A DNA stretch of 59,648 nucleotides from a virus (lineage: Duplodnaviria; Caudoviricetes), in IMG/VR virus record IMGVR_UViG_3300037264_000296, positions 1-59,648 of that record, one strand, 5' to 3'. This document shows positions 6,448 through 27,883 of this stretch, in pieces. Both the position numbers and the translations under genes were made by a program. Every line of letters begins with the position of its first letter. Positions within the stretch are counted from its first letter, which is position 1. The notes beneath the pieces were generated by a model. That model worked only from the letters and a program-made list of their open reading frames with translations, had not been told where the DNA came from and ran no database searches.

Positions 6448-9400
6448 ATGCCATCTTTACTATCAGATAATCCATTATTATCATTCAATTCATTATTACC
6501 AGATGATGCTTCTAATAAAGCTAATGAACTGTTAGATAAGCTTAACCAAAAGAAAGTAGCTTTAGGTAAGCAATATGTTGACTATGATAATCTTGAAGTA
6601 GTTGATGGTGATACTGTACATAAGAAAGATACAGGTGAACAGTTTAGACTACAGTTTGATAAGTCAGGTTATTCAATAGATCCTTATGAAACTAATCATG
6701 GGGATATATTTACTGCTAAAGAAGATACTCAAAAGAAATTAGCAAGACAAAGACAGTATTTATTAGAACAAACTAATAAAGATAAATGGTTTGATTTTAC
6801 TAAAGCTAACCCAGAAGATATTACTAATGAAATGATCTTTGCTAAAGGGGAAGAAGCTAAACAAAGATTAAATAATGCTCTAAAAGGTAAGAAAGGTATT
6901 GAGTTAAATACTTGGGGTGAAGATATATTTCATAGAGGATTAACTGATATTAGATTAGATGGTTCACAGGATAGTTTATTAAGTGAAATTAATACCCCTG
7001 AATTAAATACAGGATATAACCAGAAATATAACTCAATTCAAAAACTTAAAGATAGTTTAAATAAAAATGCTGTAATGCAAGATGTAGGAGATATAGCTAC
7101 TAACATTGCAAGTAGAACTGTTGGTTTAACTGGTTTACCTGCTGAATTAATTGATATGGGTTCTGGTGCTGTAACAGCTATTGCTAACAAGTTAGGAGCT
7201 GATTTAAATGAACCGTTATCTTATACAAAAGCATTAGCTGATGGGGTAGAGATTCCCTTTACAGATGGATTTAGAGTAGGATTTGATCCTAATAGAGCAG
7301 CTAAAACTATTAAAGAAACACTGCAAAGTAATGAAGCTGTTGCTAATGAAGTTGAATATGCTAAACGTAAAGCTGATGCTATAAGAACTAAAGGGGATGA
7401 ATTATCTTTTGGTGAAGAGTTTGGTTTATCAATGAAGTTTATGGGAGATCATCCTAAGTATGCTATTGATGCTGTTGCTGAAAGTATTCCTGACTTCTTC
7501 TTAATGGGAGCAGCAGCTAAAAGAGTTGCTGGTAAAGTAGCTGAAACAGCTCTTAAAGAAGCTGGTTTAACTATTACTGATGTAGGTGCTAAAGATGTAT
7601 TAGCTACTGCATATAAAGCTAACAAAGGTAGAATATTAGGAGCTAGTGCATTATCAGAAGGTATTATATCTGCTGGTTCAGATTATCAAGGATTAATAGA
7701 TGAAGGTGTTAAATCAACTAAAGCAGCATTACCTTCTATTGCAGCAGGTGCAGCAGTTAGTTTAATTAATCTTGGTTTGGGGCATTCTCCTTTAGGTGAT
7801 GCTATTACTAAGTTTGTAACTAAAGATGCTTCTAATGCAGCTAAAGAAACTCTTAAAGGAGCACTAACTAAAACATTAGTATCTGTTGGAAGTGAGAGTA
7901 TTGAAGAAGGATTACAATCTCCAGCAGAAACTATTCTTACTAACGTAGCTAGAGAGAAAGCTAATTTATTAGAAGGAGCAGGATATTCTGCTGCTGAAGG
8001 TACTGTTTCTGGAGGTATATTAGGTGGAGGAATGACTGCATCACATACTTCATTAGATGCTCTTAAATCATCTTTAAATGCTCGTAGAGAAGCAAAACAA
8101 GAAGAGTTAGCTAAAGCTACAGCTAATCCAATGAAAGATGCTACAGATGCTTTAAATTCATATAACAGTGTAGATACTCCTTCACCTGAAATGAATGATT
8201 CATTAGTTAAAGCAGCTACTGATTTAGGTATTGATATTAAAGATAAACCAATAAATGAAATACATGATGAAGTAACTAAAGCTACTAAATATTCTTCTGT
8301 AGAGGATTATCAAGCTATTAAAGGAATGGATAGTGATACTGATTTAAATGAACATATTACTAAAGTAGTTGGTTCTAAAGTATCAAATGATGTTCAGATA
8401 GATGTATTAGAACAATTACAAAAGAAAGATCCTACAAGTTTTGAAACTCGTAAAGAAGAACTACAACCTAAATTAGATAAATTATATCAACAATCTACTA
8501 CTAAAGATGATCCTAATTTAATTGCAGATAATATTCATACAAGTAAGTTATCTCCATTAGCTACTGCTAGTATTCAAGCAATAGATAAAGAAGCTAATAA
8601 GCTTACATCTAAAGATCCTGAAGTAATATCTAAAATTGAACCAACATTATTATTAGAGCATACTGCTAGGATTGTTAATGAAGCAGGTAAAGTAGATCTA
8701 AAAGACACTACTACTAAAGAAGAATATAGAAATGCTGTAAATGTGTCTTTAAATGGGTATTGGGTTGTTGCTGCTAGTACAGGTAATATAACTGAAGAGA
8801 AAGCTCAAGAACATCTTAATAGAGTTCAACGTACATTAGCTAATTTAGAAAGTCACATAGTAAACAATACTGATATGACTAATAAGGAAGATATTAATTT
8901 ATTAATTAAAAGTAATTATGGTTCAGTAGCTCCTGAAGAATTAACCCCTGAAAATAAGAAATCTGTTCCTACTGAAGATTTAATAAAAGCAAGTAAAGAT
9001 ACCACTGATAAAATTAAAGCTGCTAGAGCTACTACTACATTGAAATTAAGAGGTGTTTATTCGCAATTAGAAGATAAGCTTAAAAAAGTTCCTGGAATAT
9101 TTAATCAAGTAATTAAAGAAGTATTTGAGGGTACTGGTGATAAACCTGCTATTAAAGAACATCAATTACTTATTATGGCAGCAATGGATAGTGATAAACT
9201 AAGCTCTAAAGCTGCTACTAAAACTGCTTTAAATGATTTTGGTAAATGGATTAATTATCATTCTGAGAAACAAATAGAATTAACTAAAGTAAATCAAGCA
9301 ATTATTAAACATGGTGTTGATTCACAGCAAGCTATAGATGCTTTAGTTGATTTAAATACTTGGGCTAAATCTAAAAATGTAGTAGATATTGAAGGTAATG

Positions 9401-12400
9401 CTAGAGAATATAAAATCTCTAAAAAGAATGGTAAATTAAAATTTGGTAATTTAACTGAACAAGTTACTTTAGAAGCTAAAGCTATGCAAATAGCTTTTCA
9501 TGCTTTAAAAGATGAAGCTAGTGCTAAGTTTGGTAAAGAAGATTTACCTGATGCTATGAGTCATTTACTTGATACTGAAGTAGTTACTACTCCTGTAGTA
9601 TCAGAAGAAGATAATTCTACTGTACAAACTGAAGAGGATTTAGCTAATAGATTTAATGAAGAACAACCTTCTAATACTACTGAACCAAGCAACCCAAATA
9701 AAAATAAGGATAAGTTTACCCCAACACACACTTTAACGAACTCCAAAGGTACTAGAACTATTGTTGTACAAGAAATTAAAGATGATTACTTAAATACTGT
9801 ATGGCGTACTGAAGATGGTGGAAACATACATAATATTGAAAATTGGATTGGAGATGGTTGGGTTATTTCAAAAATTAAAACTGAAACTAAATCTAAAGAA
9901 GAGTCTATCTTTTCTAAATTAAAAAAAGAACTTGCTGGTTTAAAAGCATACATTCTTGTAGATATTTTATCTGGATTAAAGACATTCAAAGCTATATATA
10001 GAGGAGAAAGAGTTTCATTACTAGATTTAGAAAATGAAATTTTACGTTTAAGAAAAAAAGCTAATAAAGGGGAATTAACTAAACAAGATTTAATTAATAC
10101 ATACATTTTATGGGTTACAGATACTAGAATACAAATGAGTATATCTGAAGAATCTGTAAAAAATAATCAACAATTATATGTTGATATGCTTGATGAAATA
10201 GTATCTTCATTAAAAGAATCAGATTTTGCATCTGATACTGAAGTAGAAATTATAAATGTACAGGAACAAATTTCAGCAAATGAAAGCTTTGGTAAACAAA
10301 CAAACACTGCTGAAGAAGTAGAATTGTATGTAAAAACAAAAGAAGAATTAAAAAATAAATTAGCTAGTTTAAAAGAAAAACTTACTTTAGAAACATCAAC
10401 AGAAGAAGTAACACCTACTGAAGAAGCTAAACCAGTAGAAGATAATTCTACTGTTACAGAAGAAACTACTCAATCAGAACAAGATACATTACAAGATGAA
10501 TCTGAAATACCTCCTATAACTGATGAAGAATTTCAGTCTATGTATGATTCATATCAAGAAGAAATACAAGATGAAGAGTCTAATGTAGAACCATTAACAG
10601 CGAAGCAACTGCAAAGTATATTTAATAATATCATTGGTTTAATTAAAGCAAATAAAATAGCTACAACTAATCCAATTGAAATGGCTAGTAAGATTCTTAC
10701 ACACTTATTTAAAACAGATTTATCTCTATCAGATGTTAAAGATAAGATGGAGAATTACATTCTTCCAGGTATTAATGACAAAACTATTAAAGATAACACT
10801 AATAAAGATTATTTGTTTGGTTTAGAACTTGGTAGAGAAGAAGCTAATAATAAATTCTTAGAATGGCAAGACAAAAGACTTAATGAATTAGCTAATGCTA
10901 AAACTGATACTCAAGAAGCTAATCCTGATGTTAATCCTGAATTCTTTAAAGAAAAATTAAATAGTAAAGGTGGTAAATTCAGATTATTTTTTACAATAAA
11001 AGGAAGTAAAAAATATATTCCTTTTATAAAAGTAGAATCACCTATTAAAAATGTAACAAATCTTGTGCCATTAGAAACTGTTGTAGATTCTAAAAATAAA
11101 GAATTACCTATTAAATATTATTTATTTAATAAATTTGTCAATACAGCAGGTGTAGGAAGACTTTATTCTAAAGCCCTTGGTTTACTAAAAGATTCTACTA
11201 AAGAAACAGTATTTACTAAGTACCCAGACTTATTTAGAAACTTAGAGAATAATGTTCATATTATTAGTCAACTTAAATCTATTGAAGGTAAAGTTGCTAT
11301 AGATACTATTGCTGAGTTTGTAGAACAATTTCATAATGAATATGTTAAAGCTAATACCAAAATATCAGACACTATTGATAGAAAGAAATTTACTTCTGAA
11401 GTAGGTAAAAAGTTTAGTAAAGATATTCAAGCACAGTTAGCAGTATTTAACAAAGATAATTCAGAAGTAGATTTAAATGTAGAAGCTTTGCTTAAACACT
11501 TTGAAGGTAATTCTGATGTAACAAGATTTATAAATAAATTTGCTAAAGTATTATTGAATGTAGAATCTAATCCTTCATTACTTTTACATAATGATGATGA
11601 AGTAATAGATAGAAATATCACTGCTCAATTAGCATTACATGCTTTAAGTTGGATGATTAATACAGGAACTAAAACTCTCTATACTGAAAGAGAAATGACT
11701 CTTCACATGCTTGGTAAAGAAGAAGCTACTGCTCCAAGTGATGAAGCTATGGCTGCATTATCTACTATGGGATTGGTAAGAGGTTATGTAGCTAATCAAA
11801 TGTCAGGCTCTATTGTTAATTATATGGGTTTTAAACCAAATGATTATATTCCTAAAGAGATGTTTCCTAAGTTTGAAACAGCATTAGGATTAAGTGCTAT
11901 TGATACTTTAGAGAGAATGGGTTATGTAGAATATAAAGGTATTCCACAAGCTTCTATGAATGCATTTATGACTGGAGAAGATACTGTCAGTAGAGGTTAC
12001 ACAAGTGAATCTTCTATATTAAAAGATGCAACTATATTTGTAAGAATTAAATCTGATTTAGCTAAAAACAATGAACCAATATTAGTTAAACATGTAAGAG
12101 AGTTGTTTGATAAAGTTAGACCAGGTAATAAAGAAATACAAGATATATTCAGTATTGAATTAGTTGAAACAGAATATTCTGCTACTCCTTGGGAAAGATC
12201 TAAGTTATTACAGATGCTTGGAGAAAGAAATGGAATACTTACATTTGGTAATTCAAGAACTCAGTATGCTAAAGATGATAGAAAAGCTGCATTGAATGGT
12301 GCTAAGTCAGCATTTGACAATAGAACTGCTGCTAATGATTTAGCTAATAAATTAGGCGATGAGTTTCTTAAAGAGATTAATTTTGAAAAGAAATTAGATG

Positions 12401-15400
12401 CTGAAGATCATATTGGTAATATTGAATCTAATAAAGGATTATTGTCTTCTACAATGTCTATGCTTGATTCTTGGAAAGAATTAAATAGTTTAGGTGCAGT
12501 AGTTTATTTCTATTATAAAAAAATGTATCAAGGCAGATACCAAGGAGTTGGTTCAGGACATCCACAAACTAATAAATTAGTTAGATGGACTAGATCATTA
12601 TGGAAAGGTGAAGTTAAAAAAGATTATTCAGATCCAGTATTTAAACAGTTTATGCAAGCTGTTATAGAAGGATTTAAAAAGAAACCTTCTCAAATGACTG
12701 ATGCTGAAATACAGGATTCTTTTATTGAAATATATGAAAAACATATTCCTGTATTAAATTTAATTAATGAAGATACTCTTACTGAAGAAGAGAAAGATAC
12801 TATTGTACAAGCTATACATGCTGGTGGTGAGAAGTATCATACTATGGCTGTATTAGCTGCATTGTCTGAGTATCATTCAACTATTGGAGATACATTTACA
12901 ACTACACTAATGAGAGAGATTGATGGTATTACTAATGGTCCTCTTATCTCATTAATTATGATGTCTGGAGTAAAACAAACTTTTTTTGAAGGAAAACCTG
13001 TAGCTGTACATATTGAAGAATTACAAGCAGGAGGTGTATCTATTACAGGAGAATCCTACTTAGATTTTGTTAAAAACAACCCTGATACTAATGATATGTA
13101 TAAGATTGTCGCAAGATATATTAATATATATATATCTGAATTAAATGAAACATTACCTTTAATAATTAGAGAAGGTAAAAATAGATTTTTAAAAGATGTG
13201 CGAACTCCGTTACAACAACGTATTGCTATTATGGATGCACATCCTAATAGAATAGAACCTCAAGTATGGTTAAATGCAGTTCATAATCTTGTAGGTATTA
13301 TTGATAGAGGATTTGCTAAGAATCCTACTACAGTATTTATCTTTGGTGGTTCAACTATTAAAATTGCTGCTAATGTAGCAAGTAAAGTATTATTTGATAT
13401 TAATAATAAATTATTAGCAATATCTAAAATAGAAGATGAAGTAACTCAATTAGATGCTGTAAAAGAATTACATGCTAACTTATTTAATAGTATTGGTTTA
13501 CCAATTAATCTATTAACTGAATATACTAAAGCTCCTAATAAGAAAACATTCTTACTAAACTGGCAATTAACTAAACCACAAAAAACTATACTTAGAAATA
13601 GTGTAATAGCTACTTATACTCCTGTAATTGATAATGCAGTTAAAACTGTATTTGCTAGATTATTAGAGAATAGAAAGTTAGTAAACAATGTTTATCAATT
13701 AACTAATAAAATATTCAAACATGAGTTTGAAAGAAAAATAGATGAGTTAGTTAAACAAGGTATTACTATTACTGCGGAAGATATTGATAATATTCTTTTA
13801 GAGTTACAACCTCTAATGCCTGATATTGCTATATTCAATGCTGAAGATATTAAAGAACAGAGACTTCAATTATGGAAACCTGAATCAGCTAAACAAGGTA
13901 AAGCAGATTATAAAGTACAAATAAACAGTCCTAAAGATTCTAAACCAATGACTATGATGGGATTAGATGAACAAGGAAATGTATTTGAGTCTTATATTAT
14001 CAATGAAGGTACTGATAACGAAATAGAAATTCATGTACCTCAATCTGCTTCTGCTTATGCTAAAGATATGATTATTGCTGCTATGAGTGTAAGAGCACCA
14101 ATTACTTCTACACATAATGCTGATAGTCATGTAATACAACAACTACTTAAACTAAACCAACAAGTATTAGGAATACATGATGCTTCTATGATGGGATTAG
14201 ATAGAGTAGAAGAAGTATCAAGAGGAATGAATGAAGCATTGTTTAATTTACTTGCTAACTATAATTACTTTAATGAAGTATATAAGCATTTAGAAAGAGT
14301 CAAATCATATAATAAAAAGAATATTAATTCTTGGTTTAATGGTACGGTAAACAGAGTTAATGCTAAAGCAGAAGGATTACTTAGTGAAGTAAATGAAGAA
14401 GCACGTCCTGTAGATATTACTCGTGAAATAGTAGGTTCTTGGAATACTGTTTGGGTTAGAGATCCAGAGACTAGAAGAAATGTACAACGTATTGCATATA
14501 ATTCATTTGATGAGTTTATTGCTTATTTTAAAGATAAATCTGAAGAGTTATATAAAGAATTACAAGACAATGTAATCACTCCTATTAAACAAGGAGGTTC
14601 ATTTGGTAACTATAGTGGTCAATATCCATTTGTACCTGTATATACTCCTACAGGTAGTACAGAAGAACAAATAGTATCTATTATTGAATCTGGATTAAAT
14701 CAAGGTAATACAAATACTAAACCAGAAATTAAACCAAGTGAAAGTAATGAAATATATTCTCAGTTAGGTAACAAAACTAAATCTACAAATGTAGTTATTA
14801 CATCTTGGAGTAATTTAAAAGGAGTAACTAAAGCTATTACACCTAATGGTGTTGTAGCTACAAGAATATATAATTCTAATGAACATTTTGGTAATCCTTT
14901 TAGTCATGATCCTGCTGGTAAAACACAAGGACTTATTCAAACAGAAACTATACAAGAAGCTGTTGAAAGATATATTGATTGGGTAATTAACTCAAGTGAT
15001 ATTAGAGCTAATTGGATTAGAGCACAGTTGCAATCTGGAGTACTAAAAGGTAAACCAATTCTATATTACAAAGAGTTAGGAGAACCATCTCATGCTACAG
15101 CTTTAGATTATTTAATCAATAAGTATGATTGGGGTAATAAACCAAGTGAAGATACTTCTACTAAAGTAGGATTTACACTTAAAGGTAAGCCAGGAATATA
15201 TGCTAGTTTGCTTAGAAAAGACCAAGGTAAAGCGAATATAGTTAATGCATACATTGGGTATGGTATTAAAGGATCGTCTACTGAAGCTTATTTAAATGAT
15301 GCTCAAGGTAATGTTCCAACTAATGAAAGCATTAATCCAACTAAAGATACTATTGCATTTGTAAGTATTAATGGTAATAAACAATTAACTCCAGAAAATA

Positions 15401-18400
15401 AAACTAAAACATTAGAACAAATTAAAAGAGTTTTAAATGCAGGTGGAGTTATTGTTATGGATAATTCTAGGATTGCTAATAGTATTCATAACAAATCTGG
15501 TGAAGGGGTTATTCAACAAGAGATTCAATCTATTCCTGGAATAGGTATGATGGAAGTAAACGGTAATAATCAATATAAGATGATTAATACTTCTACTCAA
15601 ACCAATGAAGATAATAACTTTGTTTTAACTAAAGATAAAATTCAAAAATTAAAAGATTTTATTAATAAGTATATTAATTCTTCTGATACTTATAAAGTAT
15701 CTGATTTAATAGATAAAGTTAAATTATTAAATCCTGAGTTTAAAGATTTAGATATTTTAAAATATATGTATGGCAGTCTGTTATCTACATATTATTCTGA
15801 TGAGAATCAAAAGAAAGATTTTAATGTTGGAAACAAAACTCCTGATATGTTTTATCAACATAAAAACTATTGGGAGAGTAGAAAGAATTATGGACTTAAA
15901 TTAGTTAAAGATAATCAATCTGGAAAAGCTAAGATTATTTCTATAAACAATAATCCTAATCTTGGTTCACAAGAATCTACTACAACTAATTTATTTCAAA
16001 ACCCATTAGGTAATATTGACTCTACTAATGTGTTAGATACTGCTGAGAGATTAGAGAATTTAGGTAATGTAAGAGATGAAGATACTCATACAACGCATTT
16101 AAAGAGCATTCTAGGAGGCTTTATATCTAAGGTACTACAACCATTGCAGTACTTTGAAATGACTTCACCAGAAGCGAATATAGGCGAATATGATCCATCA
16201 GGTAAAATAGGTTTAAACATATCTAATGCTCCTATAGCTCCTACAGTTAAAGTACCTATGAGTGCATTAACTACATTCGTACATGAGTTAGTTCATGGTG
16301 TTACTGCTAGTGCTTTATTCGATCCTAAGAATAGTATCTTAAGAAGTAGAGTACAAAAGATATTCAATCATATTGAAAGGAATATATCTAATGAAGATAA
16401 AGAAAAGTATTCTCATATCTTTGCTAATAAGAATAAAACACAATTAGCAAATGGTACATTTGTTAATCATGGTTTAGCTGAATTAATAGCATTTGCTGAA
16501 ACTGAACCAATGTTTAGAGAATTACTTAATTCATTACCTAAAATGACTGTAGGTAAGATTACAGAGACTTGGGATGAATCTAAAGAGAAGTTTATAGAAG
16601 CTAATCTATTAGAGATTATATCTAATGTATTTAATAAGATTATGGTTTGGTGGAATGATAAAATTAAAGGTGAACATTCTACGGATGTATTAACTCAGTT
16701 ACATACTTTAACAGTACAGTTATCTACAGCACATCTTAAAGCTAAAAGTACTATTTATGACTTTAAATTACTTTCTGATAAGTCAGATAACTTTGTATTA
16801 AATAAATTACATAGATTATTAGTAGAACCATTACTTAAATTATTAGGTAATAATTACTTTACTTTAAATCCAAATAAGAATGCAGCAGCAATGTCTAACT
16901 CTGCAAGAGACTTACTTAATGCTCCTGGTAGTGCTAAAGCAAAAGTAGATAAGCTATTTGAATTCACAGATATTATGAAGAAGAATTTAAATATATCTGA
17001 AGAGCATTGGCTTACTTATTCATTAAATGAAATTACAGGACAGATAGCTGTAGGTAACTTTACTCAAGCTCTTAATATGACTAAGAAGTTAAGAGATAAA
17101 GTTGTAGCTATTATTCAGAATACAATCTCTTCTAATTTAAGAGCTGGATTTAAAACCAATCTAACTAAACAATTAGATAGAGTTGTTTACAACACTTTAT
17201 TAAAAACAGATTTAAGTTCATTACAAGATTATTATAAAGATGATTTATTAAATATGTTTGATGGTTCTAAACGTAAAGTAGAACAAGAGAAACTTAAGAA
17301 AGAAATTCTTAATAATAAGAATGGTAAATTGTACTTAGGACATACTTACAATACAGCATTCTTTATGGTTCATAACCAAGCTACTAAATCATTCCAGCAT
17401 AGTACATTAATGAATGCTACTCAGATTTATAATATGTATGGTTCAAACTTTAAACCAGTAGGCGATAAAGATAGTACAGTAGAGTTGATAGATAAATTGA
17501 TTGGTTTGTATACTTTAGATCTTGTAAACCAAGAAGAATTAAATACTCTTAAAGATTTGTTTAATACTGATAGTCATGGTTTAAATATGTCTATGGAAGT
17601 TCATAGACAACAGAAAGAACATCACTTAAATGATATTCTTAAAGGTAATAAGAGTTTAGTTGTTAAAGGTTCTACTAAAGAATTAACTAATCCAAATAGA
17701 CAAATTATTATTGCTACTGCTGCTGAAGAAGAGAAACTTAAGTTAAACCATTACACTAAAGGTAATAAGATTGTTTATGAAGGTAAAGAGTTATATGTTT
17801 ATCATTCTAAGTTTAGATTAATGCAACCTTGGGTTCAAGGTATTATCTCATATACTCACATGAATAATATCTTAAGTGATATGAAAGGAGTAATGAAGCA
17901 ATCTGATGGATTAGATCAAATTATTCAAGATGGAAAATTAGATGCTTCAGCTAAGATTAAAACTATGAAAGAGAATGAAGCTAATGCTAATAAAACAGTA
18001 TTTGATACTACTGAAGCTGACTATACTCTTAATCCAGTATTCAATGGTAAAGGATATGTAAGTAAACATTCATTTATGTTAAGTAATCAAGATAAAGAAA
18101 ACTTACTTGATATGAATACTAACTTTACTCATGTATTAGGAGCTATGGTAGCTAATATTACTGATAAACTTAATACACAAAGACTTAATGATGAATCAGC
18201 TAAGATGCTTATTAAGAATAGAATGGATAATCTTGAGACTAAAGGTATTCAATGGATTACTTTAAGTAAAGATGCTAAGACTAAGAATGAAAGAGATATT
18301 TGGAATAAATTAACACCTGAATTTAAGAAAACTATATTAGATTTGTCTGGTTCAAATGAAGTAGTTGTTAATGCTAAGTTATTAAAGATGATATTTGGAC

Positions 18401-19446
18401 AACGTAAGTTATCTTTATCAGATTTCTTTAGACCTGCTGATGAACAAGAGTTAAGTACATTTGTTAAATACTTTGGTTCACAGCTATATCCATATATTAA
18501 GAAAGTTAATTTAGATAGAGGTACTCAAATATGGCAAGAAGGAATTGGTTATCTTAAAGATCAATTGGTTGTTAAATCTGGTACTGTATTAGGTGGTAAT
18601 GAAGTAAGTAATGCATGGATAGCTTACATGGAAGGCATGACACTTATACAGTACTTTAAAGCTAAGATTGAAGCACTTAGATTAGTTATTGGTTATCATA
18701 AATTACAATCTCAAATAAATGATATTGAGTATTTACTTAAATATGATAAAGAAATGAGTTCTACTATGAGAACTAACCTTGAAACCAAGTTAAGTAATAT
18801 TTCTAGTCTAGCTAATAATAGCTTAGTTAAAAAATATGACATTGCTGGTCAAATGAAAACTATTGTTGATGAGATTGGTGAAGATGAGAATTTGTGGAGT
18901 TTTAGAAATGAAGTCTTTGAGAATAGAATTAAATCTGTTACTGATAAACTACCTAAACCAATAAAAACTATTGGTAGAGAAGTATTTATGACACATGATA
19001 CAAAAATGTATCAGTTAATGAGAGACCTAACTCAGATGTCTGATTTAACGTCTAGGATTGCTGTAGGCGAGTTTAAACAGTCACATGGTATGACTGAGAA
19101 GGAAGCATTACAATTGGTTGATGAAGCGTTTATTAACTACGATATACCATCACATCAGAATGTACAATTTGCTGCTGATATGGGATTGTTTATGTTTAAT
19201 AAATTCTTCTTTAGGATTCAGTCAGTAATAGCTAGAGAAGTAGGACAACATCCTGCTAGATTCTTAACATTACTTGGTATGGAACAAGTGTTTGGAGCAC
19301 AAGAAGCAATCCATCATTCTCTTATGACTCCAGATGAGTTAATAGGACATGTTAGTAACCCATTGAAACTTCCTTATGCAATATGGGATTCTAACTTTTA
19401 CAACTGGTTATTTAGTTTTCATGCTCCTGTTTATCAACCTGTGTAG
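6448..19446 (+). CDS. Virion-encapsidated RNA polymerase (N4 gp50-like) with extra domains
   Basis: 4332 aa, no Cys found on reading; motif A REIDGITNG, motif B RGFAKNPTTVFIFG, motif C GIHDA; HELVH motif; C-terminal AFINYD...GLFMFNKFFFRIQ. Confidence 0.95.
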   Translation: MPSLLSDNPLLSFNSLLPDDASNKANELLDKLNQKKVALGKQYVDYDNLEVVDGDTVHKKDTGEQFRLQFDKSGYSIDPYETNHGDIFTAKEDTQKKLARQRQYLLEQTNKDKWFDFTKANPEDITNEMIFAKGEEAKQRLNNALKGKKGIELNTWGEDIFHRGLTDIRLDGSQDSLLSEINTPELNTGYNQKYNSIQKLKDSLNKNAVMQDVGDIATNIASRTVGLTGLPAELIDMGSGAVTAIANKLGADLNEPLSYTKALADGVEIPFTDGFRVGFDPNRAAKTIKETLQSNEAVANEVEYAKRKADAIRTKGDELSFGEEFGLSMKFMGDHPKYAIDAVAESIPDFFLMGAAAKRVAGKVAETALKEAGLTITDVGAKDVLATAYKANKGRILGASALSEGIISAGSDYQGLIDEGVKSTKAALPSIAAGAAVSLINLGLGHSPLGDAITKFVTKDASNAAKETLKGALTKTLVSVGSESIEEGLQSPAETILTNVAREKANLLEGAGYSAAEGTVSGGILGGGMTASHTSLDALKSSLNARREAKQEELAKATANPMKDATDALNSYNSVDTPSPEMNDSLVKAATDLGIDIKDKPINEIHDEVTKATKYSSVEDYQAIKGMDSDTDLNEHITKVVGSKVSNDVQIDVLEQLQKKDPTSFETRKEELQPKLDKLYQQSTTKDDPNLIADNIHTSKLSPLATASIQAIDKEANKLTSKDPEVISKIEPTLLLEHTARIVNEAGKVDLKDTTTKEEYRNAVNVSLNGYWVVAASTGNITEEKAQEHLNRVQRTLANLESHIVNNTDMTNKEDINLLIKSNYGSVAPEELTPENKKSVPTEDLIKASKDTTDKIKAARATTTLKLRGVYSQLEDKLKKVPGIFNQVIKEVFEGTGDKPAIKEHQLLIMAAMDSDKLSSKAATKTALNDFGKWINYHSEKQIELTKVNQAIIKHGVDSQQAIDALVDLNTWAKSKNVVDIEGNAREYKISKKNGKLKFGNLTEQVTLEAKAMQIAFHALKDEASAKFGKEDLPDAMSHLLDTEVVTTPVVSEEDNSTVQTEEDLANRFNEEQPSNTTEPSNPNKNKDKFTPTHTLTNSKGTRTIVVQEIKDDYLNTVWRTEDGGNIHNIENWIGDGWVISKIKTETKSKEESIFSKLKKELAGLKAYILVDILSGLKTFKAIYRGERVSLLDLENEILRLRKKANKGELTKQDLINTYILWVTDTRIQMSISEESVKNNQQLYVDMLDEIVSSLKESDFASDTEVEIINVQEQISANESFGKQTNTAEEVELYVKTKEELKNKLASLKEKLTLETSTEEVTPTEEAKPVEDNSTVTEETTQSEQDTLQDESEIPPITDEEFQSMYDSYQEEIQDEESNVEPLTAKQLQSIFNNIIGLIKANKIATTNPIEMASKILTHLFKTDLSLSDVKDKMENYILPGINDKTIKDNTNKDYLFGLELGREEANNKFLEWQDKRLNELANAKTDTQEANPDVNPEFFKEKLNSKGGKFRLFFTIKGSKKYIPFIKVESPIKNVTNLVPLETVVDSKNKELPIKYYLFNKFVNTAGVGRLYSKALGLLKDSTKETVFTKYPDLFRNLENNVHIISQLKSIEGKVAIDTIAEFVEQFHNEYVKANTKISDTIDRKKFTSEVGKKFSKDIQAQLAVFNKDNSEVDLNVEALLKHFEGNSDVTRFINKFAKVLLNVESNPSLLLHNDDEVIDRNITAQLALHALSWMINTGTKTLYTEREMTLHMLGKEEATAPSDEAMAALSTMGLVRGYVANQMSGSIVNYMGFKPNDYIPKEMFPKFETALGLSAIDTLERMGYVEYKGIPQASMNAFMTGEDTVSRGYTSESSILKDATIFVRIKSDLAKNNEPILVKHVRELFDKVRPGNKEIQDIFSIELVETEYSATPWERSKLLQMLGERNGILTFGNSRTQYAKDDRKAALNGAKSAFDNRTAANDLANKLGDEFLKEINFEKKLDAEDHIGNIESNKGLLSSTMSMLDSWKELNSLGAVVYFYYKKMYQGRYQGVGSGHPQTNKLVRWTRSLWKGEVKKDYSDPVFKQFMQAVIEGFKKKPSQMTDAEIQDSFIEIYEKHIPVLNLINEDTLTEEEKDTIVQAIHAGGEKYHTMAVLAALSEYHSTIGDTFTTTLMREIDGITNGPLISLIMMSGVKQTFFEGKPVAVHIEELQAGGVSITGESYLDFVKNNPDTNDMYKIVARYINIYISELNETLPLIIREGKNRFLKDVRTPLQQRIAIMDAHPNRIEPQVWLNAVHNLVGIIDRGFAKNPTTVFIFGGSTIKIAANVASKVLFDINNKLLAISKIEDEVTQLDAVKELHANLFNSIGLPINLLTEYTKAPNKKTFLLNWQLTKPQKTILRNSVIATYTPVIDNAVKTVFARLLENRKLVNNVYQLTNKIFKHEFERKIDELVKQGITITAEDIDNILLELQPLMPDIAIFNAEDIKEQRLQLWKPESAKQGKADYKVQINSPKDSKPMTMMGLDEQGNVFESYIINEGTDNEIEIHVPQSASAYAKDMIIAAMSVRAPITSTHNADSHVIQQLLKLNQQVLGIHDASMMGLDRVEEVSRGMNEALFNLLANYNYFNEVYKHLERVKSYNKKNINSWFNGTVNRVNAKAEGLLSEVNEEARPVDITREIVGSWNTVWVRDPETRRNVQRIAYNSFDEFIAYFKDKSEELYKELQDNVITPIKQGGSFGNYSGQYPFVPVYTPTGSTEEQIVSIIESGLNQGNTNTKPEIKPSESNEIYSQLGNKTKSTNVVITSWSNLKGVTKAITPNGVVATRIYNSNEHFGNPFSHDPAGKTQGLIQTETIQEAVERYIDWVINSSDIRANWIRAQLQSGVLKGKPILYYKELGEPSHATALDYLINKYDWGNKPSEDTSTKVGFTLKGKPGIYASLLRKDQGKANIVNAYIGYGIKGSSTEAYLNDAQGNVPTNESINPTKDTIAFVSINGNKQLTPENKTKTLEQIKRVLNAGGVIVMDNSRIANSIHNKSGEGVIQQEIQSIPGIGMMEVNGNNQYKMINTSTQTNEDNNFVLTKDKIQKLKDFINKYINSSDTYKVSDLIDKVKLLNPEFKDLDILKYMYGSLLSTYYSDENQKKDFNVGNKTPDMFYQHKNYWESRKNYGLKLVKDNQSGKAKIISINNNPNLGSQESTTTNLFQNPLGNIDSTNVLDTAERLENLGNVRDEDTHTTHLKSILGGFISKVLQPLQYFEMTSPEANIGEYDPSGKIGLNISNAPIAPTVKVPMSALTTFVHELVHGVTASALFDPKNSILRSRVQKIFNHIERNISNEDKEKYSHIFANKNKTQLANGTFVNHGLAELIAFAETEPMFRELLNSLPKMTVGKITETWDESKEKFIEANLLEIISNVFNKIMVWWNDKIKGEHSTDVLTQLHTLTVQLSTAHLKAKSTIYDFKLLSDKSDNFVLNKLHRLLVEPLLKLLGNNYFTLNPNKNAAAMSNSARDLLNAPGSAKAKVDKLFEFTDIMKKNLNISEEHWLTYSLNEITGQIAVGNFTQALNMTKKLRDKVVAIIQNTISSNLRAGFKTNLTKQLDRVVYNTLLKTDLSSLQDYYKDDLLNMFDGSKRKVEQEKLKKEILNNKNGKLYLGHTYNTAFFMVHNQATKSFQHSTLMNATQIYNMYGSNFKPVGDKDSTVELIDKLIGLYTLDLVNQEELNTLKDLFNTDSHGLNMSMEVHRQQKEHHLNDILKGNKSLVVKGSTKELTNPNRQIIIATAAEEEKLKLNHYTKGNKIVYEGKELYVYHSKFRLMQPWVQGIISYTHMNNILSDMKGVMKQSDGLDQIIQDGKLDASAKIKTMKENEANANKTVFDTTEADYTLNPVFNGKGYVSKHSFMLSNQDKENLLDMNTNFTHVLGAMVANITDKLNTQRLNDESAKMLIKNRMDNLETKGIQWITLSKDAKTKNERDIWNKLTPEFKKTILDLSGSNEVVVNAKLLKMIFGQRKLSLSDFFRPADEQELSTFVKYFGSQLYPYIKKVNLDRGTQIWQEGIGYLKDQLVVKSGTVLGGNEVSNAWIAYMEGMTLIQYFKAKIEALRLVIGYHKLQSQINDIEYLLKYDKEMSSTMRTNLETKLSNISSLANNSLVKKYDIAGQMKTIVDEIGEDENLWSFRNEVFENRIKSVTDKLPKPIKTIGREVFMTHDTKMYQLMRDLTQMSDLTSRIAVGEFKQSHGMTEKEALQLVDEAFINYDIPSHQNVQFAADMGLFMFNKFFFRIQSVIAREVGQHPARFLTLLGMEQVFGAQEAIHHSLMTPDELIGHVSNPLKLPYAIWDSNFYNWLFSFHAPVYQPV

Positions 19447-23799: not shown

Positions 23800-25947
23800 T
23801 TAATTTCTCTTTTGGATTGCTTTTGATACAGTAATAAATATAGTTGAATGAATTTCTCCTTCATCTAATTTATTAGATAATTTTTCATTTAAGTCTAATA
23901 CTTTAGACTGTACTTCTTGTTCAGATAAACCAGAATCAACTAATAATAATGCATACTTAATCATTTGATTACTGCGATTACCATCTTTAAATTTATCTAC
24001 AAACCATCTTTCTATATTAGATAATGATTGTGTATCTAACAGTCTTTTCTTCTTTTCCTCAGCCTTAGAGGTTTTAGGAATAAATTGTAATGCATCTAAT
24101 AAAATACCTTCATTGTATTCATAATGTCCTTTATTAGCTAACCACTTTTTACTACGCTGATGAGTATCGTCAACTGTTTTAAATGGAAGCCAATTAACTA
24201 CGTTATACATGAATTCTTTGTACTCTTCAGCATTAAGATTTAACTCATGGCTTATAGGCATAACAAGTCTAAATCTATTATGTTCAGAAGTGTGTCTTTT
24301 AGTTATATAAACCAAGTAAGTATAATCTTTCATAAGTAATTTAGCAGTAGCTAAATCTATCCCTTCATCAATATCTAGTACAAGCATATTAAATCTAGGT
24401 ATAGCATCACATTCTTGCCTATAATTATTAAGAAAATGATGGTTACACCAATGTAGATTTTCTATCTGAGTACCTATATAAACCTCATTCCATTGTTTAA
24501 ACCTTGGTTCAAATCCTGCTGCTTGAGCATCACCAGGAGCAATAATAATAGACATAATCATATTACTTAAGTCAGTCTCTTTTAATGATTCACCACTTAA
24601 GAATTCAATACCATCAAGATAATTCTTTTTAATGATTGTATTGTTTTTATATCCCCATGCTATAGCAAGTGTTAATTGATCTCTTCTAAATGCTTCAGTA
24701 CCTTTAAACCAAGGAATCTCAGATACCATATCTGCTTGAGTAACTTCAGTTTTATTAGATAGATACTTTGCTAATCTTACATAAGACTTATCTCTAGTCA
24801 TCATTCTTTCAAATGCTTTACCAGAATCTTCTGTAGCTAACACTGCTGCATTCCACAATTCTTCAGTAATTTCATGTGAACCAACTATAAATGCATAAGT
24901 ACCTGCTAGTTTAGTTGCTTTAAAGTATCTATGGCTTAATTCTGCTTTACGAGCTACTTCATTAGTACCTAATAGTTTTGCTTTTTCTTGACAATCTATC
25001 ATGTACTGAATACGTCTAATAGCTTGTTCTTTAGACTCATAAATCTCTTTATTGAAATTTATCATATCTGCTAATTGACCTAATGTTTTTAATGTAGCAG
25101 CTAGATTGTTTCTCATGGTTGGGTCTGTTGCTACATTGTATATTTCTTCAGCAGATAGTTGTTTTGTTATTGATTGCTCTACATAACTAAAGAAACATCT
25201 TCTTGCATAACCAGTTACTAATAAGTCATCAAACTCTTTTTCAAGTTTTGAACCATCGAACAGAATATCATGTGTTCCAAATAACATCATATTAGTTGGA
25301 ACAGCTCCATGAATTTCTTTTACTCTTACAGATTCCTTAGTGTTTTTAATTAACTTAGTTCCTATCACTCCAACATCGAATGTCTCTAAATAATTAGTTA
25401 GTAGTTCCTGGTTTCCAGTCATATTCTTAGCAATCTCATCCATTTCAAATGACAATGCTCCCGCTCCAATTAATAATCCTTTATGTCTTTGCTGTTTAAA
25501 TGCTGCACTTGTTCCACTATCAAAATTAAATAAGAATTCTCCTGTACCACGATACTCTTCAGTTAATTTCTTAAGTTCTTCTTCAAAGTCAGAACCAGTT
25601 TTAATACTTCTTTTAGTTGCTAAATCAAATAATTTTTTATCTGCAATTGCTGGTAAAGTATTTTCTATGAAGTTATCTCTAAAAGTTTCAATTACATTAT
25701 CTCTAATAATGTTTAAAGAATGCCCTTTACTATACCCAGATCCTGCTAATCCAATAAGATACATATTTACAGGTATAACTCCTCTATCAGCAGTAATAAC
25801 TACACATCTCATTGTTGATGCTAGTTTTGTAAGCTGATAGTTAGCAACATTCCTGAAGTATCCTCTGTCATAATTCTGAGTAATAGCACAAACACCATTT
25901 ACTATTATTTCTGTTGGTTTAAAATATCCTTCAGGAGTTACATTCAT
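23800..25947 (-). CDS. DNA primase-like replication protein (N4 gp43-like)
   Basis: GSGYSKG, FEMDEI, TGYARR, VLDIDEG, TKRHT...RFRLVMP, GNRSNQMIKYA. Confidence 0.85.
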   Translation of the reverse strand: MNVTPEGYFKPTEIIVNGVCAITQNYDRGYFRNVANYQLTKLASTMRCVVITADRGVIPVNMYLIGLAGSGYSKGHSLNIIRDNVIETFRDNFIENTLPAIADKKLFDLATKRSIKTGSDFEEELKKLTEEYRGTGEFLFNFDSGTSAAFKQQRHKGLLIGAGALSFEMDEIAKNMTGNQELLTNYLETFDVGVIGTKLIKNTKESVRVKEIHGAVPTNMMLFGTHDILFDGSKLEKEFDDLLVTGYARRCFFSYVEQSITKQLSAEEIYNVATDPTMRNNLAATLKTLGQLADMINFNKEIYESKEQAIRRIQYMIDCQEKAKLLGTNEVARKAELSHRYFKATKLAGTYAFIVGSHEITEELWNAAVLATEDSGKAFERMMTRDKSYVRLAKYLSNKTEVTQADMVSEIPWFKGTEAFRRDQLTLAIAWGYKNNTIIKKNYLDGIEFLSGESLKETDLSNMIMSIIIAPGDAQAAGFEPRFKQWNEVYIGTQIENLHWCNHHFLNNYRQECDAIPRFNMLVLDIDEGIDLATAKLLMKDYTYLVYITKRHTSEHNRFRLVMPISHELNLNAEEYKEFMYNVVNWLPFKTVDDTHQRSKKWLANKGHYEYNEGILLDALQFIPKTSKAEEKKKRLLDTQSLSNIERWFVDKFKDGNRSNQMIKYALLLVDSGLSEQEVQSKVLDLNEKLSNKLDEGEIHSTIFITVSKAIQKRN

Positions 25948-26043
25948 AATTTACCTATTCACCAAAAAACAGAATATTCCTAAGCCAATCATTGTTATAG
26001 CAAATCCTATGCTATCTTTCCATTCTAATAATACTGTACACAT

Positions 26044-26763
26044 TTACTCACCTTTAGGTAAAGATTCTCTATCAACACCACCACACCAAATCTTAGAATA
26101 AACAGATCTTGATTTATTTAAACCATATCTACTATTTAATAATTCTGCGAATTGTTGAGTAGTTCTAACTCCGCCAATTCTACCTATACAATACTCAGAA
26201 TACATAAACTGAATATCATCATACTGTTTCTGAGTAATTTTAGTAGTATCAGATTGTTTACGAATTTTTTCATTGCGGATAAGTTCTCTTGGATATACCT
26301 TACCAGCTTTAAGTTGAGCAATAGATTCTGTTAGATGATTGGCATTAGCAAGTGAACCCAATAGATAGTTAGTTTCTTGGTTTAATGAATCATCAATAAT
26401 ACGTTCTTTAGCTACTTCAGTACAATGATTTAAAATACCTTCTTTTTGTAAGAAGTCATCAAAATTAGAACCTACATGTGTAGGATTTATCTCAATAGAT
26501 GCTTTAAGATATTTCTCAAATACTGCATAAGCATCTTTAAGATCTTGAGGAGCATCATCTGGTAATACTGGATAAGTAAACGGTACAACTGTTTCAGGTA
26601 ATTCAGTTACTGATTCAACTTCATATCTGAATTCTGGTAATTCTAATGGAGACATCATTGGATCAAAACTACTTGCTAAAGTATCTGCTTCATTAGCATC
26701 TATAGCATCTACTTCAAATTCAAAAGGATAGACTACATCTACCTTACATTTATATCTAGGCAT
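26044..26763 (-). CDS. Mosaic protein containing two antitoxin-like segments
   Basis: HVGSNFDDFLQKEGI and QETNYLLGSLANANHLTESIAQLKAGK segments. Confidence 0.6.
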   Translation of the reverse strand: MPRYKCKVDVVYPFEFEVDAIDANEADTLASSFDPMMSPLELPEFRYEVESVTELPETVVPFTYPVLPDDAPQDLKDAYAVFEKYLKASIEINPTHVGSNFDDFLQKEGILNHCTEVAKERIIDDSLNQETNYLLGSLANANHLTESIAQLKAGKVYPRELIRNEKIRKQSDTTKITQKQYDDIQFMYSEYCIGRIGGVRTTQQFAELLNSRYGLNKSRSVYSKIWCGGVDRESLPKGE

Positions 26764-26792
26764 ATTATTTCCTTTGTTAATTATTTATTAAG

Positions 26793-26870
26793 TGTAGCAG
26801 GATAGGACTCGAACCTATATGAAGACACTCTAGCTGCATCTCTTGTCTACCATTCCAACACTACTGCTAC
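26793..26870 (-). tRNA. Aberrant tRNA-like element (Leu-type D arm, non-canonical anticodon arm)
   Basis: Acceptor GTAGCAG/CTGCTAC, GGAATGGTAGAC D loop, ATAGG-TTCGAGT-CCTAT T arm; no encoded CCA. Confidence 0.6.
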
Positions 26871-26911
26871 ATAATTATTTATTCAAAACAATGTGCGTAA
26901 GCACATTAAGA

Positions 26912-27883
26912 TTATTCTTGAATTAAACCTTTAGATTTAAGGTCTAAGTATTGTTCACAGATTGTACTGCAAGGACAGTAACCACATCTTTTAGCATAGG
27001 CTTTATATTCTACAACTAAACCAACATTACCATCTTTAATAAGTCTCATATTAGCTTCTGATTGTGAAGTAAAGTTCTTTGTACTTCTAGCAGTTTTAGT
27101 AGGATCTTTATAATATTTCCATACTGGATCATCCATCCATAAATCTTCTTTAGTACAGTCAGGTAATTCGCTTTCAGGTCTATCAAGTAACTTATCAATA
27201 GAATTAAGTTTATTAACAATATACTCTTCAATTACTTCTACTGGTTTAAGACTATATTTCTGTTCCATCCATCTTTTTTGAGGATAGTCTCTGTTTTGTC
27301 TAGCTTCTTTCTTACTCCAATCTGTAAATAACCAGAGAATACTAAAATCTTCTTGAGTTACTTTATCTTGGTTTAACCATCTGTAAATACTTGCTTGTAG
27401 AATATCCTTTTCAGCATTAGATTGAAAGATATAAGCATAAGCTTGTCTATTTTTTAAATCATTTAATCTACCATCAATAATGATGTCAAATTTACCTGTA
27501 ACAGTCCAACCTGCTATTTGTTTACTAGCACGTTGCTCTACATATACAGGTATAGTTCCTTCGGGTATATCCCAATGAGGATTGATTCTAATATTGTTTA
27601 TAACATCTTTATGATAACCTAAAGATTCAAATATTTTCTCTGGGTTACTTGTCCAAGCTTGTTCAAGTGCAGTATGAATAGCACTTCCTAAACTACTAGC
27701 AATTCTATCTGAAACATCCTCAATACCTTCACCAGTTAGTCTCTGTAACAAGATAATCTGTTTGGTAGTGTCTAATAAGGATGTTGCTGATATTGTCTTC
27801 TCAGAACGATTGTAATCATAATTACTGTGCAGAAACAATACACACAATGCTAGAGGAATTTGTTCTTTGTTTGTATATTGCAT
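26912..27883 (-). CDS. PD-(D/E)XK nuclease-like protein (N4 gp42-like)
   Basis: ISATSLL, GSAIH, VEQR, GKFDII...DLK, Q.SIYRWL, C-terminal CGYC...C. Confidence 0.85.
   Translation of the reverse strand: MQYTNKEQIPLALCVLFLHSNYDYNRSEKTISATSLLDTTKQIILLQRLTGEGIEDVSDRIASSLGSAIHTALEQAWTSNPEKIFESLGYHKDVINNIRINPHWDIPEGTIPVYVEQRASKQIAGWTVTGKFDIIIDGRLNDLKNRQAYAYIFQSNAEKDILQASIYRWLNQDKVTQEDFSILWLFTDWSKKEARQNRDYPQKRWMEQKYSLKPVEVIEEYIVNKLNSIDKLLDRPESELPDCTKEDLWMDDPVWKYYKDPTKTARSTKNFTSQSEANMRLIKDGNVGLVVEYKAYAKRCGYCPCSTICEQYLDLKSKGLIQE

Follow-up and report, generated by a model that had tools for sequence, protein, structure and literature searches.

This study concerns a protein of 239 amino acids (aa) encoded on a virus contig, IMG/VR record IMGVR_UViG_3300037264_000296, the 59,648 nucleotides (nt) of which (positions 1 to 59,648) make up the whole window analysed. 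The gene, taken from the list of open reading frames (ORFs) and treated here as that of a phage accessory protein, occupies 26044..26763 including its stop codon and lies, like all of its parts, on the minus strand. Four segments can be distinguished. The N-terminal scaffold domain (aa 1-92; 26488..26763) is common to all homologues and is delimited by alignment A1 and the AlphaFold2 (AF2) model, and the C-terminal scaffold domain (aa 165-239; 26047..26271) by invariant columns in A1 and by the same model. Between them are two putative toxin-binding modules related to different type II antitoxins, one of HigA type (aa 93-126, with a profile match to aa 131; 26386..26487), recognised by its motif, a profile and an alignment to 6af3_B, and one of YefM type (aa 127-164, profile match aa 129-164; 26272..26385), recognised by a YefM model, PDB chains, the YefM protein P0016 and a profile of our own. 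An initial annotation of this DNA had placed a chimera of two antitoxin segments at 26278-26487 on the minus strand, and these positions do correspond to aa 93-162 of the ORF. Its description of two type II antitoxin segments in tandem is borne out below, but the protein is not a free-standing chimera; the segments are rather an insert in the linker of a conserved phage protein.

The YefM-type module is the counterpart of the C-terminal, YoeB-binding tail of Phd/YefM antitoxins. The whole protein matches the NCBIfam YefM model NF008499 (E 1.6e-5), with aa 129-162 falling on model positions 49-82 of 83, and the PDB YefM chain 2a6q_A (E 0.07), five more YefM or antitoxin chains matching the same residues (aa 127-162). 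A search of short proteins yielded P0016, which is 96 aa long, contains a full PF02604 domain (E 7e-20) and has a C-terminus identical to aa 129-164 at 28 of 36 positions (78%; E 1e-6 against 5.8 billion proteins, 3e-16 pairwise). Our own profile of 86 positions, built from P0016, six genomic YefM proteins and one viral YefM, scores 37.0 bits on aa 129-164, which correspond to positions 51-86 only, while the best of 5000 shuffled sequences reaches 9.1 bits. All 13 columns common to four aligned YefM-tail sequences (alignment A7) are kept in the phage protein. Profile positions 1-50 find no match in it, and no N-terminal Phd/YefM fold is detected by Pfam, which assigns the whole protein to no family, the tail alone reaching 13 bits against a cut-off of 29.8.

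In the XRE-type antitoxins of Gp49/HigB toxins, the counterpart of the HigA-type module is the strand at the N-terminus together with helices 1 and 2. When aa 86-130 were run by HMMER against all of 1.84 billion representative proteins, 23 non-self matches at E <= 1e-3 were obtained. The motif H-[IV]-G-S-x-F-D-D-F-L-x-E-E-G-I-L is present, mostly N-terminally, in all 17 of the matches that were fetched and inspected; the other six are long (291-2235 aa), repetitive proteins. In P0039 the motif runs on into an HTH_3 domain, and many database matches of 56-73 aa consist of the motif only, some of which may be truncated gene calls. In P0031, P0025 and P0038 (130-173 aa) the motif was seen in the middle, preceded by other N-terminal sequence; P0031 has faint, below-threshold Pfam matches, including one that is UPF0150-like, and P0025 found no match by tblastn in 50,697 phage records. 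In the same phage records the HigA-like segment of our protein gives matches at E >= 6 only, and the segment alone has no Pfam or PDB match, nor does an untidy profile (A2) match the PDB.

The identity of this module became apparent from its bacterial counterparts. A scan of 185,579 species genomes confirmed at least 266 loci among the 600 pattern matches listed, of which 80 were kept. A typical motif-bearing gene encodes 93-97 aa with the motif near residue 10 and is abutted upstream by an ORF of 111-130 aa; all 35 upstream ORFs that were tested in Pfam are PF05973 (Gp49). The Gp49 profile matches 72 of the 80 loci and fails to match in eight. By a strict distance rule Gp49 lies directly upstream in 60 of the 80, with about nine more in which the antitoxin start had been called too early, and in three it is on the opposite strand. 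Gp49 proteins are ribosome-dependent mRNases of the RelE/ParE superfamily, encoded in toxin-first gene order (PMC11980606), and the Gp49 toxin profile matches Streptococcus pneumoniae HigB (6af3_A) at E 4e-16. The profile of the cognate antitoxins aligns end to end with S. pneumoniae HigA (6af3_B), the motif falling approximately on residues 5-35, albeit at a weak E of 0.02. In that HigA, strand 1 (6-9), helix 1 (10-17) and helix 2 (20-42) form the HigB interface, and the contact residues are listed between 10 and 34 (PMC7984235). The initial annotation had named RelE-family toxins as the targets in general; for the HigA-like module the partner can be narrowed to the Gp49/PF05973 branch of the RelE superfamily.

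Profile A4, which comprises 94 positions and was made from 34 bacterial antitoxins whose loci had been chosen by their likeness to the phage segment, scores 40.2 bits on the phage protein (E 1.8e-14), with aa 93-131 matching positions 3-41 only; the best of 5000 shuffles scores 7.0 bits. Because both profile scores greatly exceed the shuffle maxima, the two antitoxin resemblances are far beyond chance. Seven of the eight invariant N-terminal HigA columns are kept. A4 positions 42-94, which hold the XRE helix-turn-helix (HTH) and dimerisation half, are unmatched, and Pfam gives no HTH_3, HTH_31 or HTH_37. Each segment is thus homologous to the toxin-binding end only of its antitoxin family, and the DNA-binding and dimerisation domains of both antitoxins are absent from the phage protein, in agreement with the earlier statement that neither cognate DNA-binding domain is present. 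That the protein has no DNA-binding domain at all is not thereby established, because its C-terminal domain weakly resembles a three-helix HTH (Z <= 5).

The scaffold into which the modules are set is a phage protein family in its own right. Fourteen database homologues of 171-193 aa (137 aa where cut) have the same N- and C-terminal domains joined by short and variable linkers, and in the alignment of 15 family members (A1) the C-terminal domain is the most conserved part. The tandem modules are absent from all 14 homologues, as well as from the syntenic relative L082, the one relative available as DNA, which keeps the order of exonuclease followed by this gene. At the DNA level L082 hardly differs as far as the Glu91 codon or from the E-K-I-R-K-Q codons onwards; between these its linker has 19 residues instead of 73, and it follows that the extra linker consists almost entirely of the two modules. 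They abut without a spacer, the HigA match ending at aa 126-131 and the YefM match starting at aa 127-129. We conclude that the pair of modules is an insert and occupies the variable linker of this conserved phage protein. A nine-residue piece at the module junction, I-I-D-D-S-L-N-Q-E, occurs also in the linkers of P0010 and P0013, and could be either what is left of an older insert or part of the native linker. The idea that all homologues carry a decayed YefM tail was rejected, as P0016 matches the 14 homologues at E >= 0.59 only (in a database of these 14 sequences). Searches for further scaffold-family members found none in an IMG/VR scan and one, L082, in JGI metagenomes, and the whole protein finds no match by tblastn in the phage records.

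Compared with positions 1792-2343 of L082 the gene is a mosaic: identity approaches 100% in some blocks (codons about 60-91, 165-182 and 214-239), and these are interspersed with others that have diverged strongly (codons about 10-57 and 183-213). On the nucleotide alignment the arrangement is that of cassette-like recombination. The AF2 model is confident for both scaffold domains (predicted local distance difference test, pLDDT, about 76-92 for the N-terminal domain and 86-95 for the C-terminal one), and aa 95-168 fall below 50 with helical propensity. In such a model, a low-scoring helical insert between confident domains has the usual look of the disordered toxin-binding region of an antitoxin. 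Residues 171-234 of the C-terminal domain align by VIA-align with CENP-B, Tc3, Myb and homeodomain structures at Z 4-5, which hints at a homeodomain-like HTH of three helices, while Foldseek searches with the scaffold fold found nothing at E <= 0.001 in PDB or BFVD (E > 0.5 for the C-terminal domain). A search of ESM Atlas structures returned small viral hypothetical proteins only, which the N-terminal domain resembles, and no feature matches.

Sequencing runs provide further insights into the insert and its variation. In run X1, perhaps the sample of origin, a single Logan unitig (453 nt; depth 23.4) agrees with 26096-26548 at every position and includes both junctions. The G+C content at third codon positions (GC3) is 0.125 in the insert and 0.117 in the gene. 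An assembly chimera was rejected on these two grounds. The same run also contains an allele without the insert, in which a contig of depth 9.9 joins 26274 to 26492 via 55 other letters, and this allele is present in run X4 as well. Run X3, which belongs to another study, holds a 122-nt contig over 26400-26521 with eight differences, comprising HigA-type module sequence and 31 nt of scaffold; of the seven changes listed, four alter residues (N100D, K107E, I110S and N112D) and three are silent. Other X3 contigs match the YefM-like part over 81 nt at about 86% identity, with flanks that translate like the end of a P0016-like YefM gene, and therefore a close bacterial source exists in such habitats. 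As to bacterial genomes, relatives of P0016 were found in four of the five that were searched, all of which hold the HigA-type module; there are six relatives in total, and a YoeB_toxin gene lies directly downstream of five. Because YefM-YoeB is present in four of these five HigA-module genomes, one host can present both toxin targets. None of the five qualifies as the donor, the best identity to P0016 being 47%.

Neither cognate toxin is encoded alongside the protein. In the 59.6-kb record, which is estimated to be 80% complete, no Gp49 toxin gene (PF05973) was found and no yoeB toxin gene (PF06769) at E <= 1, and the gene immediately upstream of the 239-aa gene encodes an exonuclease and not a Gp49 toxin. 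The earlier observation that an adjacent toxin is lacking is thus correct, and extends to the record as a whole: the protein is encoded, in an N4-like context, by a phage in whose record the corresponding toxin genes were not found. A complex prediction for YOEB_ECOLI, a Gp49 toxin (L012, alignment A5) and aa 88-170 of P0001 as the partner gave 0.89 over three runs. Swapping the partner reduced this to 0.00 and 0.01, but swapping chain 2 gave 0.91, and the prediction is hence unspecific as a whole and uninformative on the Gp49 chain.

Comparable segments are found singly in other phages. Against isolated phages, tblastn of the insert gives weak matches (E about 0.2-2) to 121 Pseudomonas phage records. 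The gene behind them is Pakpunavirus phrog_7101, the products of which (195-213 aa) lack a Phd fold but resemble the YefM tail over a central stretch (NF008499, E 1e-5 and 3e-4); examples are L083 1309-1896 of Pseudomonas phage MAG1 and L084 1234-1875 of SPA05. Dap2 of PaoP5 was considered as a related case and dismissed, as it is a different gene (orf004) and the available part of the source does not mention YefM (PMC13083879). Scanning IMG/VR with the YefM-tail motif gave 11 loci, six of them canonical YefM genes and five of them grafts that represent four distinct, unrelated proteins (135, 193, 195 and 317 aa) lacking a Phd domain. The tail is found at the C-terminus of the 317-aa protein (L115/L117 655-1608), ahead of a DUF551 domain in the 193-aa protein (L118 1276-1854) and at the end of the 135-aa ORF (L108 1198-1608). 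With the HigA motif the scan gave 23 loci, 13 of which have a Gp49 gene upstream. Eight of the 23, or six distinct proteins, show no toxin, HTH or Pfam domain; these proteins start with the motif and have no Gp49 nearby (L101/L102, L103, L104/L105, L087, L093 and L096), and some of their contigs are 125-224 kb long. Of the remaining two, one is a broken copy, and the other encodes a full HigA in a locus without a toxin match.

Taking these results together, we consider the chances slightly better than even that the phage encodes, in this protein, a bivalent mimic of antitoxins, a sponge for the YoeB and Gp49/HigB toxins of the host. The sequence shows that a conserved two-domain phage protein has acquired, in its disordered linker, two modules of a type that folds upon binding, each captured from a bacterial type II antitoxin. 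The first (aa 93-126/131) is the N-terminal region by which HigA-type antitoxins neutralise Gp49/HigB ribosome-dependent mRNases, and the second (aa 129-164) is the C-terminal tail by which YefM wraps and inactivates YoeB. In our model, the protein would be made together with the replication (middle) genes. As labile host antitoxins decay during infection, YoeB- and Gp49-type toxins would be set free and bound by the phage protein, and their capture would prevent mRNA cleavage and abortive infection. The toxin-antitoxin (TA) operons of the host would stay unrepressed by the phage protein, and the folded scaffold domains may give it a stability that free antitoxin tails are without.

A number of points weigh against this proposal. 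Binding and neutralisation of the toxins are deduced from homology, and the presence of either toxin in the host of this phage is presumed. The alignment of the motif to the solved HigA depends on a weak profile match (E 0.02), and a Lys that is invariant in the 34 bacterial HigA proteins (position 30 of L004) is Glu120 here. The X3 change I110S affects a nearly invariant Ile, which could reflect relaxed constraint. Because an allele without the insert coexists with the one that has it, the insert is dispensable for the function of the scaffold, and the tandem is known from one full-length sequence only, as judged from a search of proteins of 131-419 aa in the 5.8-billion-protein set with the insert as query. 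Finally, an anti-phage role of YefM-YoeB or Gp49-HigA is argued bioinformatically and not experimentally in the accessible text of PMC11980606.

Some of these points are shared by an explanation in which the insert has no function, the linker of a fast-evolving mosaic gene having gained fragments of host antitoxins by illegitimate recombination. The alternation of near-identical and highly diverged DNA blocks, the absence of the insert from the 14 homologues, from L082 and from an allele of the same run, the existence of a real yefM-like gene of about 86% nt identity (over 81 nt) in a related environment, and the change of some conserved motif positions are all consistent with such a scar. We nevertheless regard it as unlikely, as it would require two independent fragments to have arrived in frame and abutting, each being exactly the toxin-binding part and neither bringing its DNA-binding domain, with 7/8 invariant HigA columns and all 13 YefM-tail columns of A7 kept. 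Similar grafts are moreover seen again in unrelated phage proteins, and the HigA module is found, in diverged form, in a second study as well. Functions other than toxin capture can also be envisaged for a disordered antitoxin-like insert. The Lon and Clp proteases degrade type II antitoxins, which are labile, and the insert, which is predicted to be disordered, might titrate a host protease and so spare the antitoxins of the host, or act as a degron that shortens the life of the phage protein. The Lon-dependence of YoeB activation (PMC4554461) counts in favour of this idea, but conservation is seen in the toxin-contact motif of each family and in no known degron, and two different toxin-binding modules would be superfluous in a decoy, which makes it quite improbable.

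A third option attributes the decisive role to the C-terminal domain, which would bind DNA through its HTH-like fold in a manner that responds, via the modules, to free host toxins. The modules directly precede this domain and there is an analogy to conditional cooperativity; against this, the HTH assignment is weak (three helices, Z <= 5), no operator or repeat came to light (no search was aimed at one) and the homologues work without modules, and we consider such a toxin-sensing regulator very improbable. The least credence, and very little at that, goes to the option that phage-borne toxins lie in the approximately 20% of the genome outside the record and that the protein is their genuine antitoxin. 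The estimated completeness of 80% leaves room for them, Gp49-family toxins take their name from a phage protein, and Gp49 is common on viral contigs, lying upstream in 13 of the 23 IMG/VR HigA-motif loci. Against this stand the lack of either toxin family in 59.6 kb and the usual adjacency of TA partners, observed in 60-69 of the 80 bacterial loci, and we know of no lytic N4-like genome that carries such TA pairs.

The proposed antitoxin mimic differs from both of its bacterial models. It resembles YefM (of YefM-YoeB; PF02604; 2a6q) in that aa 129-164 are homologous to the C-terminal tail, up to the last profile position, but it is without the N-terminal Phd/YefM fold and an adjoining yoeB gene, and the tail lies inside a protein of 239 aa. 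Likewise it has the N-terminal motif of XRE-type HigA (the nearest solved complex being S. pneumoniae HigBA, 6af3/6af4) at aa 93-131, but neither the HTH/dimerisation part nor an upstream Gp49 gene, and the Lys has become Glu120. Phage factors that counteract TA systems are known already. They include T4 Dmd, which acts against RnlA/LsoA, and the orphan DarG-like AdfM (PMC13716836), as well as anti-DarTG1 enzymes and a vibriophage mimic (PMC11825919, PMC11481870), and the cyanophage S-CREM1 carries whole orphan YefM, TacA and MazE genes (PMC9964418). Like the protein described here, these factors and orphan antitoxins are phage-encoded without a cognate toxin, and neutralisation of host toxins has been proposed or shown for them. 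They are, however, whole proteins or enzymes that each address one TA system, whereas here the disordered binding pieces of two unrelated families are arranged in tandem and embedded in an unrelated scaffold. The Pakpunavirus phrog_7101 proteins are closer in that a YefM-tail-like segment lies in mid-protein with no Phd fold, but their scaffold is unrelated, the module is single and there is no HigA-type module.

What is new is therefore the tandem of toxin-binding segments from two antitoxin families within a phage protein, the phage anti-TA factors and orphan antitoxin genes being established. The initial annotation had called the architecture undescribed, and our search of the full-text literature, which lay outside most subscription journals and all supplements, likewise found no account of a tandem of antitoxin segments inside a phage protein, nor, within the same limits, of single-module grafts. 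We further propose, tentatively and at somewhat short of even odds, that unrelated phages routinely capture short, disordered toxin-binding modules and carry them as single or tandem grafts on stable phage proteins or as mini-proteins. Such anti-TA sponges would form a class of modular build, the modules of which mirror the anti-phage RelE-superfamily toxins of the host, and the present protein would be its first bivalent example (Gp49/HigB and YoeB).

If the modules do bind their toxins, the pressure of YefM-YoeB and Gp49-HigA on phages would be strong enough for dedicated inhibitors to have been selected, which would bear on a phage-defence role of classical RelE-superfamily TA pairs that has so far been argued mostly from genomics. 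The stacking of captured binding peptides in a linker would then be a simple route to polyvalent counter-defence, and antitoxin tails without DNA-binding domains would provide a sequence signature for phage anti-TA genes, of which Pakpunavirus phrog_7101 and several IMG/VR proteins are examples in hand. For two toxin families, moreover, the smallest peptides capable of neutralisation would be defined by the minimal modules.

The 239-aa gene is flanked on the same strand by a primase gene (23800-25947, minus strand) and by the gene of a PD-(D/E)XK exonuclease (26912-27883, minus strand), which match phrog_2135 (E 2e-265) and phrog_2139 (E 3e-111), respectively. The primase shares 46% identity with its counterparts in N4-like Vibrio and Erwinia phages, the DNA of the window has weak matches, to N4-like phages only, and an ORF of 4332 aa at 6448-19446 on the plus strand has the size expected of an N4-like virion RNA polymerase. 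By this ORF, the phrog_2135 primase and the DNA matches, the contig is that of an N4-like podovirus. The window is AT-rich, with a G+C content of about 29-30%, and PADLOC reported no match in it.

Both intergenic regions next to the gene also vary. The 148-bp gap between the exonuclease gene and the 239-aa gene contains a tRNA-like element at 26793-26867 on the minus strand, which scores 21.3 bits with the Rfam tRNA model, below the gathering score of 29, and has an over-long anticodon region; ARAGORN called no tRNA in the window. The corresponding gap is 54 bp in L082, and 94 nt (26777-26872) are missing from a contig of run X4; the element is thus a further insertion or deletion. On the other side, between the 239-aa gene and the primase gene, a 30-codon ORF (25948-26043, minus strand) encodes a hydrophobic mini-protein. 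Contigs of runs X3 and X4 skip exactly these 96 nt, joining 25944 to 26041, and L082 has a different ORF, of 65 aa, in its place.

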